Source: Alphaproteobacteria bacterium
Lineage (GTDB): Bacteria > Pseudomonadota > Alphaproteobacteria > RF32 > CAG-239
Length of the DNA: 64,000 nt
Reading direction: 5' to 3'
NCBI GenBank assembly: GCA_017471705.1
Contig: JAFUSH010000023.1
Coordinates: forward strand, 2,649 to 66,648
This document shows positions 2,511-59,145 of this stretch, piece by piece. Below the pieces are notes generated by a model that did no database searches, was not told where the DNA came from, and saw only the letters and a program-made list of their open reading frames with translations. The position numbers were made by a program, and so were the translations under genes. The first letter of the stretch is position 1; every line of letters starts with the position of its first letter.

Positions 2511-3074
2511 ATGAAACAACTCGCAGGTGCTATCAGAATCGGTTGGGTTATTGAATACAAAGGCAAACCTTGGACTATTACTAAAGCTGTTCATATTAAA
2601 CCGGGTAAAGGCGGTGCTTTTATGCAAGTGGAAATGAAAGAAGTTGAAGCCGGAACCAAAACCAATGAACGTTTCAGAACTGAAGATACGGTTGAAAAAT
2701 TAATGGTAGAAGACAGAGATTGTCAATTTTTGTTTGAAGATTCCACTGGTTTGACCTTTATGGAAAACGACACCTTTGAACAATTTTCTATGCCGTCCGA
2801 TATTTTGGGAGATTCTCGTCCGTTCTTGACCGACGGTATGCAAGTTCGTGTTTCATACATTGACGGCAGACCTATTTCGGTTGATTTACCGTTGCAGGTA
2901 ATTTGCGAAGTAGTTGAAACCGAGCCTGCTCTTAAAGGACAAACGGTTTCTTCCTCGTATAAACCGGCTATTTTGGATAATGGTGTTCGCACTACCGTTC
3001 CGCCGTTTATCAACGTTGGTGATAAAATCGTGGTCGGCACTTCCGAAGCTAACTATGTAGAAAGAGCAAAATAA
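2511..3074 (+). CDS. efp: elongation factor P
   Basis: 187 aa; the KPGKGGAFMQVEMK loop and overall EF-P-like sequence; AGGAG Shine-Dalgarno upstream. Confidence 0.95.
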   Translation: MKQLAGAIRIGWVIEYKGKPWTITKAVHIKPGKGGAFMQVEMKEVEAGTKTNERFRTEDTVEKLMVEDRDCQFLFEDSTGLTFMENDTFEQFSMPSDILGDSRPFLTDGMQVRVSYIDGRPISVDLPLQVICEVVETEPALKGQTVSSSYKPAILDNGVRTTVPPFINVGDKIVVGTSEANYVERAK

Positions 3075-3856
3075 TGGCATACCTTTCTCCAGTTTTAACC
3101 CTGATAATAAGCGCCGTTAAAAAAACTTCAGGTGCTTTGGCTCGTGATTTTAACGAGTTGGAACACTTGCAAAACGGCGTACACGGGGATTCTTCTTTTG
3201 CTTTGCGTTCTTTTGAAAGAACCGAGCGCATCTTGAAGGAAGAATTGAGTAAAATCAAAGCCGGATATCCGGTAATTGTCAAAAACGATGAGACAATTCC
3301 GGCATCAGGCAATTATTTCTTGCTCAGTCCGATTGACGGTTACGTTAATTTTGCTCACGCCAACGGTAATTTTGCCATTTCCGTTGCTTTGATTGAAAAA
3401 AACAACATTGTTGACGCGGTTATCTACAACCCCATCAGCGATGAAATGTTCTTCGCCGAAAAAGGTAACGGCGCATTTAAAGAAGGTTTCCGCAATCACG
3501 AAAGACTTCGCATTGCCGGTGGTAAAAATTTGGAAAAATCCCTGATTTCTTGCAATGCCGATACTGATTTGTTGCAAAAAGTATGCAAAACAAGTCAAAA
3601 TATATTAATCAGCGGCGCTGTATCACTTGATTTAGCTTATTTGGCAGCAGGAAAATCCGATGCGGTAATTTCTACAAACAATACTCCGTCTGCGTTAGCT
3701 GCCGGAATTTTACTCGTAAAGGAATCCGGAGGGTATGTTTTTGCAATCGGAGAAACCGATGTCAGAAGCGAAAATCTGAGCAAGGTACTTTTCGGAGGTA
3801 ATATTTTTGCCACCAATGAGAATTTGCGACAAAAAATTGCCGATATAACGGCGTAG
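3074..3856 (+). CDS. suhB: inositol monophosphatase family protein (SuhB-like)
   Basis: 260 aa; LSPIDGYVNFAHANGNFAISVAL and later LDLAYLAAGKSDAV resemble IMPase family motifs; start overlaps the efp stop. Confidence 0.8.
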   Translation: MAYLSPVLTLIISAVKKTSGALARDFNELEHLQNGVHGDSSFALRSFERTERILKEELSKIKAGYPVIVKNDETIPASGNYFLLSPIDGYVNFAHANGNFAISVALIEKNNIVDAVIYNPISDEMFFAEKGNGAFKEGFRNHERLRIAGGKNLEKSLISCNADTDLLQKVCKTSQNILISGAVSLDLAYLAAGKSDAVISTNNTPSALAAGILLVKESGGYVFAIGETDVRSENLSKVLFGGNIFATNENLRQKIADITA

Positions 3857-13286: not shown

Positions 13287-14048
13287 TCATTCTTCCAAGT
13301 AATTTTTATAACCGTTTGCCTCCAAATCTTCGGCCAGTTGCATTGAGCCGGACTTAACTATATGACCGTCCGCATAAATATGAACAAAATCCGGTCTGAT
13401 ATAATTCAGCAAATCTAAATGATGAGTGATGATGAGCAACGCATTATTCTGATTATGCCATTTATTAACGCCCTCAGCCACCGTGCGTAAAGCATCAATA
13501 TCCAAACCGGAATCCGCTTCGTCCAGAATTGCCAACTTTGGTTGCAGCAAACTCAGTTGCAGAATCTCCAAACGCTTTTTTTCGCCGCCGGAAAAGCCGA
13601 CATTTATCTCGCGCTTTAACATTTCCGAGCTTATGTTAAATTCCTTTGCCGCACCGCGTATAAGCTTTAAAAATTCCGCAGCGTCAAGTTCCGGCAAACC
13701 TTTATATTTGCGCTGAGCATTTATTGCGTGTTTTAAAAAATTGTTAGTGGTAACTCCGGTAATTGCCACCGGATATTGCATACTTAAAAACAAACCTTCG
13801 CAAGCGCGTTCATTAGGGGCAAGCCGTAACAAATCTTTATCGTTAAAAAACACTTCTCCCGATGTAACTTCATAATCAGGCTTACCGGTCAAAACGTAAG
13901 AAAGCGTAGATTTTCCGGCACCGTTCGGCCCCATTACGGCGTGAATTTCTCCGGCTTTAATTTCTAAATTCAGACCTTTAATAATTTCCTTTTCATCTTC
14001 AGCTATGCCGGCATATAAATTCTTTATTTGCAACAAAACATCTGACAT
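13287..14048 (-). CDS. sufC: Fe-S cluster assembly ATPase SufC
   Basis: 253 aa; Walker A GPNGAGKST, ABC signature FSGGEKKR, Walker B LAILDEADSGLD. Confidence 0.95.
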   Translation of the reverse strand: MSDVLLQIKNLYAGIAEDEKEIIKGLNLEIKAGEIHAVMGPNGAGKSTLSYVLTGKPDYEVTSGEVFFNDKDLLRLAPNERACEGLFLSMQYPVAITGVTTNNFLKHAINAQRKYKGLPELDAAEFLKLIRGAAKEFNISSEMLKREINVGFSGGEKKRLEILQLSLLQPKLAILDEADSGLDIDALRTVAEGVNKWHNQNNALLIITHHLDLLNYIRPDFVHIYADGHIVKSGSMQLAEDLEANGYKNYLEE

Positions 14049-14345
14049 TTATTTTTCCTTTTTTTCCCATTCATCCAAACGCTTGGCAATCATTTTTAAC
14101 TTTTCCGCCTTATACTCATTGACCTGCTTTTCTATATCATAGCAATATTTGAGTTGACCGAGCATAATTTCCACATCGGCGGTTTCTTCGATAATTTCCG
14201 CAACATTATCTTTTTTACGATTAACATTTTTGAGTATTTCCTTAATCAATTCGCTCATTTCCTCAATAACCTGCAGCATTTGCGGCTCTTTACCCCAAAC
14301 TCTGATTGTGCGTTCATACAATTTCTGCTCATCTATATCACTCAT
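14049..14345 (-). CDS. MazG-like nucleotide pyrophosphohydrolase domain protein (98 aa)
   Basis: EEMSELIKE ... EETADVEIML resembles the EExxE...ExxD all-alpha NTP-PPase pattern. Its stop abuts the sufC start. Confidence 0.6.
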   Translation of the reverse strand: MSDIDEQKLYERTIRVWGKEPQMLQVIEEMSELIKEILKNVNRKKDNVAEIIEETADVEIMLGQLKYCYDIEKQVNEYKAEKLKMIAKRLDEWEKKEK

Positions 14346-14450
14346 CCTACGTTTCCTCCCCAGACATCATTCTGAACCCCGAATTTATGACGATGTCAAC
14401 ATTCATCCTACGCTTCCTTCCCAGACGTCATTCTGAACCCCGAATTTATG
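14342..14450. repeat. two tandem 61-bp-period repeats carrying copies of the sufB 3' end / RBS-ATGA junction plus an element end
   Basis: The string tcatcctacg(t/c)ttcct(c/t)cccagac(a/g)tcattctgaaccccgaatttatg occurs at 14342..14389 and 14403..14450. Confidence 0.9.
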
Positions 14451-14814
14451 TGAGGGGGGAAGAATCCAGTTCTAATATTCAAAACAAATCCCAATATAAA
14501 TCACTCCATTCTTTATTATCTGATTCTATCAATTTAATTTTTCTTTCTCGTCTCCAGCCTTTTAAGATTTTTTCTCGTTTAATAGCTTCTGTTATATCAT
14601 CAAAAATTTCATAGTAAACCAACATTTTAACATTATATTTCTTAGTAAATCCCTCGTATAATTCCATTTTATGTTCATACACTCTCTTAGTCAAATTTGA
14701 AGTTACACCCACATAAAGAGTACCGTTTCGTCTACTTGCCAATATATAAACATATCCCGCCATTTACATCTCTTTTATTTTATGGATTCTTCGGGCAAAT
14801 GCCCTCAGAATGAC
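14427..14814 (-). mobile_element. small GIY-YIG gene cassette bounded by imperfect terminal inverted repeats
   Basis: Left end is GTCATTCTGAaccccgaatttatgtgaggggGGAAGAATCC (14427..14467). Right end is GGATTCTTCgggcaaatgcccTCAGAATGAC (14784..14814). Flanked by a direct repeat aacattcatcc(t/c)acgcttccttcc at 14398..14421 and 14821..14844. Confidence 0.65.
14479..14763 (-). CDS. GIY-YIG nuclease family protein (94 aa, COG2827-like)
   Basis: YVYILASRRNGTLYVGVTSNLTKRVYEHK is a GIY-YIG signature. Confidence 0.9.
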   Translation of the reverse strand: MAGYVYILASRRNGTLYVGVTSNLTKRVYEHKMELYEGFTKKYNVKMLVYYEIFDDITEAIKREKILKGWRRERKIKLIESDNKEWSDLYWDLF

Positions 14815-14825
14815 AATATTAACAT

Positions 14826-16271
14826 TCATCCCACGCTTCCTTCCAAGCTTATATTTATCAATTTAGCAGCTTCTATGGCAAATTCCATCGGCAATTTTTG
14901 CATAACTTCTTTGCAAAATCCGTTTACAATCAATCCCACCGCTTCTTCGGCGCTTAAACCGCGTTGCATACAGTAAAACAATTGCTCTTCGCTAATTTTG
15001 GAAGTTGTCGCCTCGTGTTCCAAAATCGCTGATTTGTTACGATTTCTGATATACGGAACCGTATGCGAACCGCAGGTCGAACCTATAAGCAAACTGTCGC
15101 ACTGCGAATAGTTACGCGCCTTATCGGCATTTGAAGCAACATCTACCAAACCGCGGTATGTCTGGTTGGAAAATCCGGCGGAAATACCTTTGGATATTAT
15201 TTTAGAACGGGTATTTTTACCCAAATGAACCATTTTTGTGCCGGTATCGGCCTGTTGTTTATTATTGGTTATCGCCACCGAATAAAATTCGCCCGACGAA
15301 TTATCGCCTTGCAACACACAAGACGGATATTTCCAAGTTACCGCCGAACCGGTTTCCACTTGCGTCCACGAAATTTTAGAATTAACACCTCGGCAAACCG
15401 CTCGTTTGGTCACAAAATTGTAAACCCCGCCTTTACCGTCCTTATCCCCCGGATACCAATTCTGCACTGTCGAATATTTAACTTCGGCATTATTCATAAC
15501 CACAATCTCGACGATTGCCGCGTGAAGCTGATTTTCATCTCGCTGCGGTGCCGTGCAGCCTTCTAAATAAGAAACATAACTGTCATCTTCCGCCACAATC
15601 AAAGTGCGCTCGAACTGTCCGGTATTTTTGGCATTAATCCGGAAATAAGTGGAAAGCTCCAAAGGAGATTTTACACCTTTTGGAATATACACAAAAGACC
15701 CGTCGGTAAACACTGCCGAGTTAAGACAGGCGTAAAAATTATCGGTATACGGCACCACCGAACCCAAATATTTCTGCACCAAGTCAGGATGCTTCTGCAC
15801 AGCCTCCGATATAGAGCAGAATATAATTCCCTGCTCTGCCAATTTTGCGCGATAGGTAGTTGCCACCGAAACACTGTCAAACACGGCATCAACCGCAACC
15901 ACACCGGCAAGAGCTTCCTGTTCTTTAAGAGGTATCCCCAATTTATTGTAAGTTTCAAGCAAATTTTTATCTACTTCTTCAAGACTTTTCGGTTTAACTT
16001 TTTGCACCGGTGCCGAATAATAGCGCAAAGCCTGAAAATCAACCTCATCATACTTAAGCTTTGCCCAATGCGGCTCACTCATCGTTAACCAATGGCGATA
16101 TGCTTTTAAACGCCTGTCCAACAACCATTGAGGTTCATTTTTCTTGGCTGAAATCAAGCGGATAATATCTTCATTTAAGCCGCAAGGAGCCGCATCGGAT
16201 TCGATATCGGTCACAAATCCGTATTTATACTTATCACCGCTGAAATCTGCTATTTGAGGTTTTTCCGCCAT
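14826..16271 (-). CDS. sufB: Fe-S cluster assembly protein SufB
   Basis: 481 aa; typical SufB sequence ending ...ISLEGSVG. Confidence 0.95.
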
Positions 16272-16358
16272 ATTTATTTCCCGTTTTATTCTGGCGGTAT
16301 CATAACAATTTAAAGCAAAAAATCAAGTCGATTATTATAATATAACAGAGAACTCTGC

Positions 16359-16583
16359 TTATTTAATTATTACATTAACCTTTTTACCGTAAAAATCCAT
16401 AAGCTTACGCAAAGAATCATATTCCATAAATTTACCGAGTTCCATCCCATCGATGATTTTGCTCGGAATACCCGTGCTTGAGGCAACATTATTTATGTAT
16501 AAATGTTTTTCGTGACGAGCCTGCCATAATGCCTGCCCGATTTCTGATTTTGTTTGTGCATCAAATAAATAACTTTTTACCAT
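16359..16583 (-). CDS. small XRE-type helix-turn-helix protein (74 aa), paralogue of 58706..58930
   Basis: IGQALWQARHEKHLYINNVASSTGIPSKIIDGMELGK fits an HTH_XRE pattern. It is 67/74 identical to the second copy. SD is GGGAG. Confidence 0.8.
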   Translation of the reverse strand: MVKSYLFDAQTKSEIGQALWQARHEKHLYINNVASSTGIPSKIIDGMELGKFMEYDSLRKLMDFYGKKVNVIIK

Positions 16584-16606
16584 AGTTTTAAACTCCCTGA
16601 TTTGTT

Positions 16607-16765
16607 AAATAAAACAAAAACCACCTCAAATCTCTTCAAGGTGGGGAGTTCACAACTGTCGCATAAGCAGTCTTGCTTATTCAATATATTCAGCAAGCTC
16701 CCCGTTATGAGGAGTTATTTTATACGAGGAGCTGTGACACTCCGCAGACGACCTCTCGCCTGCAG
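16607..16765 (-). ncRNA. candidate ~160-nt structured RNA (sRNA or leader) with its own promoter and intrinsic terminator, copy 1
   Basis: Minus strand runs GCAGGCGAGAGGUCGUCUGC...GGGGAGCUUGCU-GAAUAUAUUGAAUA-AGCAAG...CUCCCC. It ends in a 10-bp stem CCACCUUGAA-GAGA-UUUGAGGUGG followed by UUUUUGUUUU. It is conserved with compensatory changes at 58954..59112. Confidence 0.6.
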
Positions 16766-16770
16766 AAACC

Positions 16771-16798
16771 ATATTAGACCAACGAGTGTAATTTGCAA
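16771..16798 (-). promoter_or_regulatory. putative promoter of the structured RNA (TTGCAA-N16-TAATAT)
   Basis: Identical hexamers with identical 16-nt spacing are found at 59118..59145, although the spacer sequences differ. Confidence 0.55.
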
Positions 16799-16870
16799 GA
16801 GAAAAAATTGTGTCACCCCTATTTTTTGCCGACAGGCGAAAAATTCAAGTGGTACCCAAGTTAATTTTAA

Positions 16871-17464
16871 TTAATCGGAAGATACTCTGATTTTGCCTTG
16901 CGGCAAAAAGGTATGACCTGACTTACTCAAATTTTGATATATCTCATCTGTTGTCATTACACTCAGACTTTGCGGCGTCAAATCCAAACTTTGCCACATT
17001 TCCGGCGGCACTTCCGGTTTATTTATTACCTGTACGGTAAAATTCTCTTTAAGCATTTCTTCTTTGTTTTCGGCAGTGAGCAAGCAAATTTCTCCCGTTC
17101 CCAAAAACGGAAGTCCCAGTTTTTCGACTACCGGCAAATGAGTGACAAAATGATAATATTTTATGTCGTCTTCGGTATTTTCCAACAGATTATTGATAAA
17201 TTTGCGGATTGTAAAAGCAGACGCACTCTCCTCCAGTGCCTCAATTTCCAAAATATGCGGACACCCCATACCCAAAGCTTCAAAACGAGCAGTCACCGTG
17301 GCTCTTGCCAACGGCGAATGATACACCGTTTCACATTCCGGCAACCATTCTTTAAGCTGCGCTCCGCTCAAATAAGCGCAAAGCATATCTTCACGCTGTA
17401 TGGCGGTATCCGTTCCGTAACGCTCGTGGCGCCCGATGCTTAAATAAAACCTATTTTCCGCCAT
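16871..17464 (-). CDS. histidine phosphatase family protein (SixA/PhoE-like)
   Basis: 197 aa; LSIGRHERYG (RHG-like motif) and YHSPLARATVTA resemble branch-1 histidine phosphatases. Confidence 0.5.
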   Translation of the reverse strand: MAENRFYLSIGRHERYGTDTAIQREDMLCAYLSGAQLKEWLPECETVYHSPLARATVTARFEALGMGCPHILEIEALEESASAFTIRKFINNLLENTEDDIKYYHFVTHLPVVEKLGLPFLGTGEICLLTAENKEEMLKENFTVQVINKPEVPPEMWQSLDLTPQSLSVMTTDEIYQNLSKSGHTFLPQGKIRVSSD

Positions 17465-58705: not shown

Positions 58706-58930
58706 TTAATCAATAATTACTTTCACCTGTTTACCGTAAAAGTCCATAAGTTTACGCAAAGAACCGTATTTCATAAATTTGCCGAGTTCCATACCATCAA
58801 TGATTTTGCTTGGAACACCGGTGCTTGAGGCAACATTATTTATGTACAAATGTTTTTCGTGACGAGCCTGCCATAATGCCTGCCCGATTTCTGATTTTGT
58901 TTGTTTATCAAATAAATAGCTTTTTACCAT
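58706..58930 (-). CDS. small XRE-type helix-turn-helix protein (74 aa), paralogue of 16359..16583
   Basis: 67/74 residues identical to copy 1; same SD and same start context. Confidence 0.8.
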   Translation of the reverse strand: MVKSYLFDKQTKSEIGQALWQARHEKHLYINNVASSTGVPSKIIDGMELGKFMKYGSLRKLMDFYGKQVKVIID

Positions 58931-58953
58931 AGTTTCAAACTCCCTGATTTGTT

Positions 58954-59112
58954 AAATAAAACAAAAACCACCTCAAATCTCTTCAAGGTGGGGAGTTCGT
59001 AACTGCCAGTGAACAGTCCGATGTATTCAATATATTCCATCAGCTCCCCATTAGAGGAGTTAATTTTCACCGGTGGAGCTACGACACTCCGCAGACAACC
59101 TCTCGCCTGCAA
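58954..59112 (-). ncRNA. candidate ~160-nt structured RNA, copy 2
   Basis: Same architecture as 16607..16765. Stem CUGAUG/CAUCGG replaces CUUGCU/AGCAAG around the identical loop GAAUAUAUUGAAUA, and the terminator hairpin is identical. Confidence 0.6.
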
Positions 59113-59117
59113 AGGTT

Positions 59118-59145
59118 ATATTAAATAAATTACATTAAATTGCAA
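59118..59145 (-). promoter_or_regulatory. putative promoter of RNA copy 2 (TTGCAA-N16-TAATAT)
   Basis: Hexamers and spacing identical to copy 1; the spacer is not conserved. Confidence 0.55.

Follow-up and report, generated by a model that had tools for sequence, protein, structure and literature searches.

A conserved structured RNA paired with a small XRE-type helix-turn-helix gene in uncultured rumen and gut Alphaproteobacteria

In the type III toxin-antitoxin (TA) systems ToxIN, CptIN, and TenpIN, a single promoter drives an RNA, an intrinsic terminator, and a promoterless protein gene, and the terminator regulates the relative levels of the RNA and protein transcripts (PMC3401426). In the AbiF/RCd22 system of Clostridioides difficile, a structured, non-repeat noncoding RNA lies upstream of a protein gene, binds the protein, and is active in cis as well as in trans (10.1101/2025.04.15.648962). 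Among the Alphaproteobacteria, the CcsR or "cuckoo" RNAs (alpha-r14) are multicopy small RNAs (sRNAs) with C/U-rich motifs resembling anti-Shine-Dalgarno (anti-SD) sequences, co-transcribed with the gene of the RNA-binding DUF1127 protein CcaF1 (PMC8034643, PMC4615179). In human microbiomes, moreover, helix-turn-helix (HTH)-XRE genes are among the commonest neighbors of unexplained structured RNAs (Fremin and Bhatt, PMC8040213). The present study concerns a cassette of promoter, structured RNA, terminator, and small XRE-type HTH gene that occurs on the minus strand of a 64,000-nt stretch (hereafter the window) of an Alphaproteobacteria bacterium genome (GCA_017471705.1, contig JAFUSH010000023.1, positions 2,649 to 66,648). 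The layout of sRNA, terminator, and promoterless gene has so far been known mainly from type III TA and Abi systems.

With the type III loci the cassette shares this layout and its occurrence in multiple scattered copies; nevertheless, its RNA is a single complex fold, whereas theirs is a tandem array of short direct repeats, and its protein is a 74-aa XRE HTH protein rather than a ~170-aa endoribonuclease (ToxN, CptN, or TenpN). The RNA resembles RCd22 in being structured, non-repetitive, and placed just upstream of a protein gene, but the protein of that system belongs to the Abi_2/AbiD/F family, and its RNA motif, prophage context, and phylum also differ. CcsR/CcaF1 likewise combines a multicopy alphaproteobacterial RNA bearing anti-SD-like motifs with a very small protein gene; there, however, the sRNAs originate in the 3' untranslated region of a protein gene that precedes them, while here the RNA precedes the gene. 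The CcsR motif CCUCCUCCC stands in hairpin loops, whereas our RNA has no CCUCCUCCC and carries its CUCC boxes in helix strands; the partner is an XRE rather than a DUF1127 protein, and no Rfam alpha-r model matches. By its predicted fold and its size the protein resembles the HipB and HigA antitoxins and the controller (C) proteins of restriction-modification (R-M) systems, which typically autoregulate their own small operon, and higBA, too, has its partner gene upstream; the window, in contrast, holds no toxin or R-M partner, and a structured RNA occupies the upstream partner position. Finally, BglG/LicT-type leaders and riboswitches also place a multi-helix leader and then an intrinsic terminator upstream of a regulated gene, which in BglG-type systems encodes the regulator itself; unlike in these, terminator and antiterminator do not overlap here, and the RNA also occurs as a unit without an open reading frame (ORF). 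By their defining features, the cassette belongs to none of type III TA, AbiF/RCd22, and CcsR/CcaF1, and we found no prior description of the RNA in the literature or in the first 200 of the 408 supplement files of PMC8040213.

A preliminary description of the window had proposed a self-contained minus-strand unit of promoter, structured RNA, and terminator ahead of an HTH gene. This unit is indeed present, and the promoter hexamers, the 5' hairpin, the stem-rich region, the terminator, the SD, the ATG, and the HTH ORF of copy 1 were all confirmed by sequence. The two copies are laid out as follows (window coordinates).

16771..16798, minus strand: promoter of copy 1, with -35 box TTGCAA (16798-16793), a 16-nt spacer, and -10 box TAATAT (16776-16771)
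16744..16763, minus strand: P1 of copy 1, the 5'-terminal 8-bp hairpin GCAGGCGA-GAGG-UCGUCUGC with a GAGG loop, from the minimum-free-energy fold
16645..16743, minus strand: core domain of copy 1, comprising P2 and the three-way junction of P3, P4, and P5
16743-16730 (5' strand) and 16657-16645 (3' strand), minus strand: P2 of copy 1, with base GGAGU:ACUCC
16727-16720 with 16666-16659, minus strand: P3 of copy 1
16714-16698, minus strand: P4 of copy 1, CUCCUC/GGGGAG
16697-16672, minus strand: P5 of copy 1, with its 14-nt loop GAAUAUAUUGAAUA at 16691-16678
16671-16668, minus strand: invariant junction ACUG of copy 1
16650-16643, minus strand: box III of copy 1, AACUCCCC, which the terminator adjoins directly
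16644-16621, minus strand: terminator stem of copy 1, CCACCUUGAA-GAGA-UUUGAGGUGG, 10 bp with a GAGA loop, from the terminator scan
16620-16611, minus strand: U-run of copy 1, UUUUUGUUUU, part of the intrinsic terminator 16611..16644
16581..16610, minus strand: spacer of copy 1, with SD GGGAGUU (16597-16591) and ATG (16583-16581)
16359..16583, minus strand: ORF of copy 1, the 74-aa XRE-fold HTH gene
58706-59145, minus strand: whole unit of copy 2
59118..59145, minus strand: promoter of copy 2, with -35 box TTGCAA (59145-59140) and -10 box TAATAT (59123-59118)
58958..59110, minus strand: RNA of copy 2, with P1 (59110-59091), core, terminator stem (58991-58968), and U-run (58967-58958)
58944-58938 and 58930-58706, minus strand: SD GGGAGUU and 74-aa XRE-fold gene of copy 2

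The RNA is ~150 nt long, and the SD and ATG of the gene lie 20-30 nt past the terminator U-run. When the two copies were aligned, their homology ran exactly from the -35 box to the stop codon; neither this alignment nor the comparison across the family revealed terminal inverted repeats or a conserved 3' end of the cassette. The RNA of copy 2 scores 167.8 bits against the covariance model (CM) of the family, and a CM search with filters off found no third copy in the window. The earlier count of two copies therefore holds for the window, but both belong to a family that reaches at least 10 copies per genome.

The structured RNA family is real and has strong statistical support. In its consensus fold, the 8-bp 5' hairpin P1 is followed by P2, a helix of ~12 bp that closes the three-way junction of P3, P4, and P5 and is abutted by the terminator. 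Both window copies share this architecture (fold z-scores of -6.2 for copy 1 and -6.8 for copy 2); seven pairs differ between them with changes on both sides, and the changes in P2, P3, and P5 are compensatory. Across 113 distinct homologues, standard pairs filled 96.0% of the cells, against 80.9% after shuffling and 35-49% with the register slid. Cells changed on both sides numbered 753, against 240 +/- 22 in shuffled sets (0 of 500 shuffles reached the observed value) and 32-117 in register-slid ones, and the covariation score was 0.492, against 0.209 and 0.04-0.10, respectively. Heavy covariation was seen in P1, the middle part of P2, P3, and P5, and one P2 pair, for instance, occurs as GC (48 sequences), AU (46), or CG (17).

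Double-sided compensatory changes affect seven of the eight P1 pairs, and G-U is frequent there (pair 5 in 51 of the 113 sequences); P1 therefore forms a hairpin in RNA rather than a palindrome in DNA, and the candidate role of P1 as an operator palindrome was discarded on account of these frequent G-U pairs. Together with a U-G pair in P4 in 110 of the 113, they bear out the earlier claim that the G-U pairs fit only the minus strand, whose folding energy is -65 kcal/mol versus -47 kcal/mol for the plus strand. One structural detail had to be redrawn: in place of the helix GGGGAG...CUCCCC enclosing two hairpins, as first described, covariation favors a long P2 founded on GGAGU...ACUCC and a P4 in which GGGGAG pairs with the CUCCUC close by. 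A search of related genomes, as the preliminary description had advised, brought further covariation and linkage to the HTH gene, and structure-preserving changes proved abundant, in place of sequence conservation without structure.

The search pattern fixed P4 and the P5 loop, and most of the diverse RNAs were found with that bias. Eleven distinct RNAs reached by protein search alone, through proteins down to ~29% identity to the window copy, keep the invariant elements (GGAGU, three CUCC boxes, GGGGAGC, AAUAUA..GAAUA, GACUG, CAG, and AACUCCCC), with CUCCCU in P4 and GAAUAUAAAGAAUA in the loop as minor variants. Neither the GGAG:CUCC base of P2 nor the CC left unpaired in box I ever changes, while the neighboring pairs vary freely; this pattern is suggestive of, and fits, boxes with alternative partners.

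As the preliminary description had surmised, no known RNA family matched. Rfam 15 at gathering thresholds returned only two tRNAs for the whole window, and at E<=10 only noise for the region (mir-787 at 18 bits and CRISPR-DR57 at 14 bits); ARAGORN found no tmRNA. Tandem Repeats Finder detected no tandem repeats in 16300-16900, even at a minimum score of 30. A small ORF hidden in the RNA (31 aa, 16677-16772 in copy 1) was also considered and rejected, since copy 2 lacks the start codon and the stems covary.

Seven clusters close to the 74-aa window protein were found among 5.8 billion proteins, all of them in uncultured Alphaproteobacteria, and the RNA lies upstream at every locus of these clusters, in at least 5 different gene contexts (ftsJ/DUF308-ffh, holA/rplY-pth, PHP/gltX, rpmG/radical-SAM, and, in the window, sufB). 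The RNA-core pattern matched 27 metagenome loci, all from rumen samples, and 87 stretches in species-representative genomes, all being metagenome-assembled genomes (MAGs) of rumen or gut Alphaproteobacteria. Viral contigs yielded 0 matches, as did plasmid and phage collections, and a phage, plasmid, or viral origin was rejected on these results. Uncultured Alphaproteobacteria of the rumen or gut account for all 113 distinct homologues, and each genome holds between 1 and at least 10 copies. At least one copy is carried by ~32 MAGs; the copies found were 10 in UBA3307, 7 each in RUG10838 and RGIG4925, 6 each in RGIG5018 and RGIG3536, and 5 each in RGIG5026 and RUG10918. With an exact pattern and incomplete MAGs, all of these numbers are lower bounds. 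The CM built from the 113 sequences found exactly two copies in the window and added only a handful from 660 kb of these genomes, which means that the family is homogeneous.

Orthologous modules are kept at the same loci across species. Within a genome, paralogous proteins are usually 24-41% identical and their RNAs ~82%, and the RNA core stays invariant while the family proteins drop to ~20-40% identity. The RNA is thus more conserved than the protein that accompanies it, and ranks among the most conserved elements that this entire clade of uncultured Alphaproteobacteria from rumen and gut possesses.

A lineage-specific expansion was observed in UBA3307, with at least 10 cassettes (L052, L057, L065, L079, L088, L091, L099, L105, L107, and L117) whose proteins are 89-100% identical (dS ~0.27) but whose RNAs are dissimilar in stems and terminators; neither a transposase nor a repeat boundary accounts for the spread of the cassette to new loci. 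Divergence in this set was 0.32 for the stems, 0.27 for dS, 0.12 for the RNA core, and 0.02 for dN. Eight near-identical proteins with very different stems raised the idea of diversifying selection on the stems, which we abandoned because stem divergence (0.32) is about equal to dS (0.27). The stems drift near-neutrally under pairing constraint.

The linkage between RNA and gene is asymmetric. An intact family ORF lies downstream of 102 of the 136 RNA occurrences, and the end of the locus cuts off most of the others. Wherever there is enough room but no intact ORF, a gene remnant is present: in-frame stops at L063 and L118, internal deletions at L096 and L127, a truncation at L108, and only the last ~12 codons at L122. 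At L031, L040, L044, and L053, a repeat element is inserted and then an intact ORF follows. The RNAs beside the six decayed genes or beside insertions score 140-160 bits. Tandem RNA-RNA-HTH arrangements with a period of 228-229 nt occur at L050:6501-6885, L094:2057-2440, and L082:4349-4731; at L050, the first RNA has its own promoter and terminator but no ORF, and a second promoter, a second RNA, and the gene come next. Two whole cassettes stand in tandem at L116. From the protein side, a profile search with 35 diverse proteins returned only 96 clusters, nearly all of 74-76 aa, and 11 of the 11 clusters sampled protein-first have the RNA upstream at 133-168 bits (133-146 bits for the most divergent sampled). 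The gene was never seen without the RNA, and the RNA can exist without a working gene. Between the two alternatives offered in the preliminary description, a stand-alone sRNA co-inherited with its regulator fits better, in view of the ORF-less units and the intact RNAs beside decayed genes.

On one contig of MAG RGIG3536, two tandem RNA-RNA-HTH pairs lie ~3.5 kb apart. The repeat element mentioned above (~60-200 nt, e.g., ...GTCATACTGAGGCAAAGCCGAAGTATC...ATTCAGAATGAC...) is inserted exactly between the RNA terminator and the HTH SD (L040:1384-1476; L044, ~60 nt past the terminator; L053:7625-7790; L031:9596-9722), both of which remain intact. These insertions look like miniature inverted-repeat transposable elements (MITEs), and would alter the leader of the gene and leave the RNA untouched.

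Of the 110 upstream regions of homologues, 104 carry TTGnnn-N16-18-TAnnnT, set at a constant distance from P1 and with a spacer that is not conserved. We take the promoter to be real because of this conservation and not because of a generic promoter scanner, which omits that of copy 1 (score 8 of 12). The -10 box ends ~7 nt before P1, and therefore the RNA should begin with the P1 hairpin. At the other end, the terminator hairpins reach -10 to -16 kcal/mol across the family, and their stems covary independently of the remaining RNA. The RNA accordingly has both a promoter and an intrinsic terminator of its own, as an independent sRNA gene does. The spacer between terminator and ATG is too short for a separate promoter, and hence the gene must be transcribed through the RNA.

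No conserved antiterminator was found: the 5' arm of the terminator pairs with its own upstream RNA at -6.67 kcal/mol, versus -6.90 +/- 0.11 with shuffled partners, and shows no excess complementarity to any upstream segment. The 3' side of P4 against box III plus the terminator arm gave an excess of 0.7 kcal/mol; as an antiterminator it was rejected, the small excess being explainable by a single "GACCAC" subclass and shared ancestry. The initial suggestion of a leader for the HTH gene stands structurally, in that the gene is transcribed through the RNA, but its form as a ligand-responsive terminator/antiterminator attenuator does not, as the terminator 5' arm has no conserved competitor.

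The HTH ORF is a real gene, since dN/dS is 0.03-0.22 across the family (0.14 between copies 1 and 2, with dS 0.36). Its assignment to the XRE type, as first proposed, stands on the family as a whole and not on the window protein, which alone matched Pfam HTH models only below threshold. Among 35 diverse members, HTH_25 matches 30, HTH_31 matches 21 (7e-10), and HTH_3 matches 16 (1e-10). A profile search of the PDB retrieved DdrO, HigA, SinR, C-proteins, and CylR2, with MBF1/EDF1 weakly. The AlphaFold2 (AF2) model from a 91-sequence alignment, with a predicted local distance difference test (pLDDT) of 78.8, matched HipB and C.AhdI, the folds closest to it, at a template modeling (TM) score of 0.74-0.85, and Foldseek with this model listed HipB, C.AhdI, HigA, DdrO, and SinR at TM 0.64-0.85, as well as ClgR and ribosome-bound EDF1/Mbf1; a first AF2 model from 8 sequences was poor (pLDDT 62) and was left unused. 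The 74-aa protein is therefore a bare XRE domain, a type that as a rule autoregulates a small operon. PADLOC reported no toxin model and no defense model beyond a generic HTH. No conserved ORF lies between the promoter and the HTH gene, the neighbors are unrelated housekeeping genes, and the HTH gene is not placed directly upstream of restriction or modification genes at the two window loci (sufB; DUF308) nor at most of the others.

The most divergent subfamily (L134-L139), located between pheT and outer-membrane protein genes, carries a same-strand N6_N4 DNA methyltransferase gene (260 aa) 88 nt downstream; at L134, for example, the HTH gene occupies 2501-2728 and the methyltransferase gene 2816-3598. 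This arrangement, absent at the other loci, recalls the C-proteins of R-M systems.

The SD hexamer GGAGTT is found in 75 of the 87 distinct family genes (86%), against 16 of 136 (12%) other genes with GGAG-type SDs in the same genomes. This bias, along with the predicted pairing of GGAGUU with AACUCCC, lends support to the anti-SD idea raised in the preliminary description. In predicted ensembles of 94 read-through transcripts, the probability that the SD is unpaired was 0.30 with the RNA attached versus 0.49 without it; the predicted pairing of the SD with box III (AACUCCC beside the terminator) took up 0.30 of the ensemble on average, more than 0.5 in 21 of the 94, and ~1.0 in window copy 1. 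Changing UU of the SD to AA (GGAGAA) lowers this predicted pairing to 0.05. Pairing of the SD with box I or box II was essentially zero in the predicted ensembles, and pairing with bases 5' of P1, an alifold suggestion, was discarded, as transcription is predicted to start downstream of them. Translation of the gene is probably gated by the SD:box III pairing, as far as these folding predictions indicate.

We consider it somewhat more likely than not, and prefer it as an explanation, that the cassette yields two products, being at once an autonomous sRNA gene and the obligatory, translation-gating leader of a small XRE regulator. To go by the sequence itself, transcription from the sigma-70-type promoter should start at the first base of P1, and the RNA folds with the long helix P2 closing the three-way junction of P3, P4, and P5. 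Most transcripts should end at the intrinsic terminator, because it is strong, follows directly, and has no competing antiterminator; the product would be a discrete ~150-nt RNA capped by a hairpin at both ends. Having no promoter of its own, the 74-aa gene can be made only from read-through transcripts, so that the terminator would set a high RNA-to-protein ratio. In the read-through mRNA, the SD GGAGUU may pair with box III AACUCCC in competition with the 5' GGAGU of P2, and the fold would thereby gate translation. The protein, by analogy, would be a HipB- or C-protein-like single-domain XRE dimer, most likely autoregulating the cassette promoter. The released RNA may act in trans via its GGAG/CUCC boxes and the GAAUA-N4-GAAUA loop, with family proteins, SD regions, or the ribosome as candidate partners; such a trans function would explain why RNA copies survive without a working gene.

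The anatomy of the cassette is clear; the trans function of the RNA and the role of the protein we infer, and several points weigh against the two-product model. Transcript ends, terminator efficiency, and a stable sRNA are deduced from sequence, and DNA binding and autoregulation by the protein are proposed by analogy, with no operator identified. The SD:box III pairing is a thermodynamic prediction that dominates in a minority of the transcripts only (the 21 of 94), it lies beyond the covariation test since both partners are invariant, and GGAGUU could be conserved for another reason. No trans target came to light: the window shows no enrichment in sequences complementary to the P5 loop (3 non-self near-matches versus 1.6 expected), and the complementarity of the CUCC boxes extends to SDs at large and is hence not specific as a target signal. 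Some of the HTH "pseudogenes" could be MAG assembly errors. Lastly, there is the bias of the search pattern toward P4 and the P5 loop, which was checked by the CM search and the protein-first RNA set.

A bolder proposal, which we advance tentatively and hold to be rather unlikely, is an RNA-protein regulatory pair of a new class, in which excess RNA from the shared promoter would directly bind the XRE-fold protein as a decoy, antagonist, or co-factor, and the invariant GGAG/CUCC boxes would swap partners and so couple folding to translation, the module being amplified to ~10 copies per genome. If true, this would make the protein a bacterial XRE that binds RNA, comparable to Mbf1/EDF1 on the ribosome of eukaryotes, and the cassette a type III-like module built from a regulator rather than a nuclease.

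It is, in our judgment, quite unlikely that the RNA is a purely cis-acting riboswitch or attenuator, with the three-way junction as an aptamer for a small molecule or cellular signal that controls termination or translation of the XRE gene, and with the short RNA as a by-product. The alternative GGAG/CUCC pairings would make a plausible switch, but a conserved antiterminator is lacking, which is why a classical riboswitch is improbable, and the stems of the terminator covary apart from the rest of the RNA. The RNA always occupies the 5' leader of a single gene family, with constant spacing and the terminator following; yet the sole gene to be regulated encodes a 74-aa DNA-binding domain without a metabolic link, and there are 6-10 copies per genome, each before a paralogue of the same gene. 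A conserved multi-stem domain with its invariant nucleotides concentrated in junctions and loops is what riboswitches have; a purely cis element, however, should decay with its gene, whereas ORF-less RNA units and intact RNAs beside decayed genes are found.

Equally, we doubt that the cassette is a type III TA-like (or AbiF/RCd22-like) pair and semi-selfish module, in which excess RNA would neutralize or sequester the XRE protein, or the protein would bind its own RNA. The order of promoter, RNA, terminator, and protein gene is that of type III loci, but the RNA has no tandem repeats; in this respect AbiF/RCd22 is a documented case of a non-repeat structured RNA neutralizing the protein encoded downstream (10.1101/2025.04.15.648962). 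XRE-fold domains can bind RNA, with EDF1/Mbf1 among the fold matches, and the closest structural relatives of the protein are the TA antitoxins HipB and HigA; the protein is nevertheless a bare HTH, a fold usual in the antitoxin, and not a ToxN- or Abi-type nuclease. The module is multicopy, scattered over many contexts, and often pseudogenized, which would suit such a pair, but orthologous modules are stable at the same loci across species and there are no plasmid or phage copies. In addition, an informal comparison by eye indicated that the stem sequences do not track the protein subfamilies and so gave no hint of cognate specificity. The stems were likewise rejected as cognate specificity determinants, the same P2 variants occurring with unrelated protein subfamilies (again judged by eye).

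A repeated or mobile, MITE-like DNA element or a DNA-level operator region, whose inverted repeats would matter as DNA, is highly improbable and largely refuted by strand-specific covariation: the many copies in unrelated contexts and the inverted repeats of P1 and P5 would suit it, but G-U pairs are frequent and strand-specific, nothing at the DNA level would call for the long-range covariation of P2 and P3, the plus strand folds much less well than the minus strand, the promoter hexamers and terminator are conserved, and the homology is bounded by the -35 box and the stop codon, with no terminal inverted repeats or conserved 3' end.

That a type III-like layout should carry a bare XRE domain, and in as many as ten paralogous copies in one genome, suggests an undescribed regulatory design, and this worked example could help to explain the pattern of HTH-XRE genes next to structured RNAs in human microbiomes.

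Some minor observations concern the surroundings of copy 1. A promoter-like TTGATT-N16-TATGAT with TG before the -10 box lies at window positions 16299-16326 on the minus strand, between the HTH stop codon and sufB, and for this reason sufB is probably driven by a promoter of its own, independently of read-through from the cassette. The suf operon, also on the minus strand, comprises sufB (14826-16271) and sufC (13287-14048), with small ORFs between them (window 14049-14850). One of these, at 14479-14763, encodes a 94-aa GIY-YIG domain protein (Pfam E 9e-17), and another, at 14049-14345, encodes 98 aa without a Pfam match. Around the small ORFs there are short, interspersed direct repeats of 51 nt (14339-14389 and 14400-14450, 92% identical) and of 38 nt (14387-14424 and 14810-14847, 87% identical). 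Small ORFs and repeats together look like insertions of selfish elements in an essential operon.

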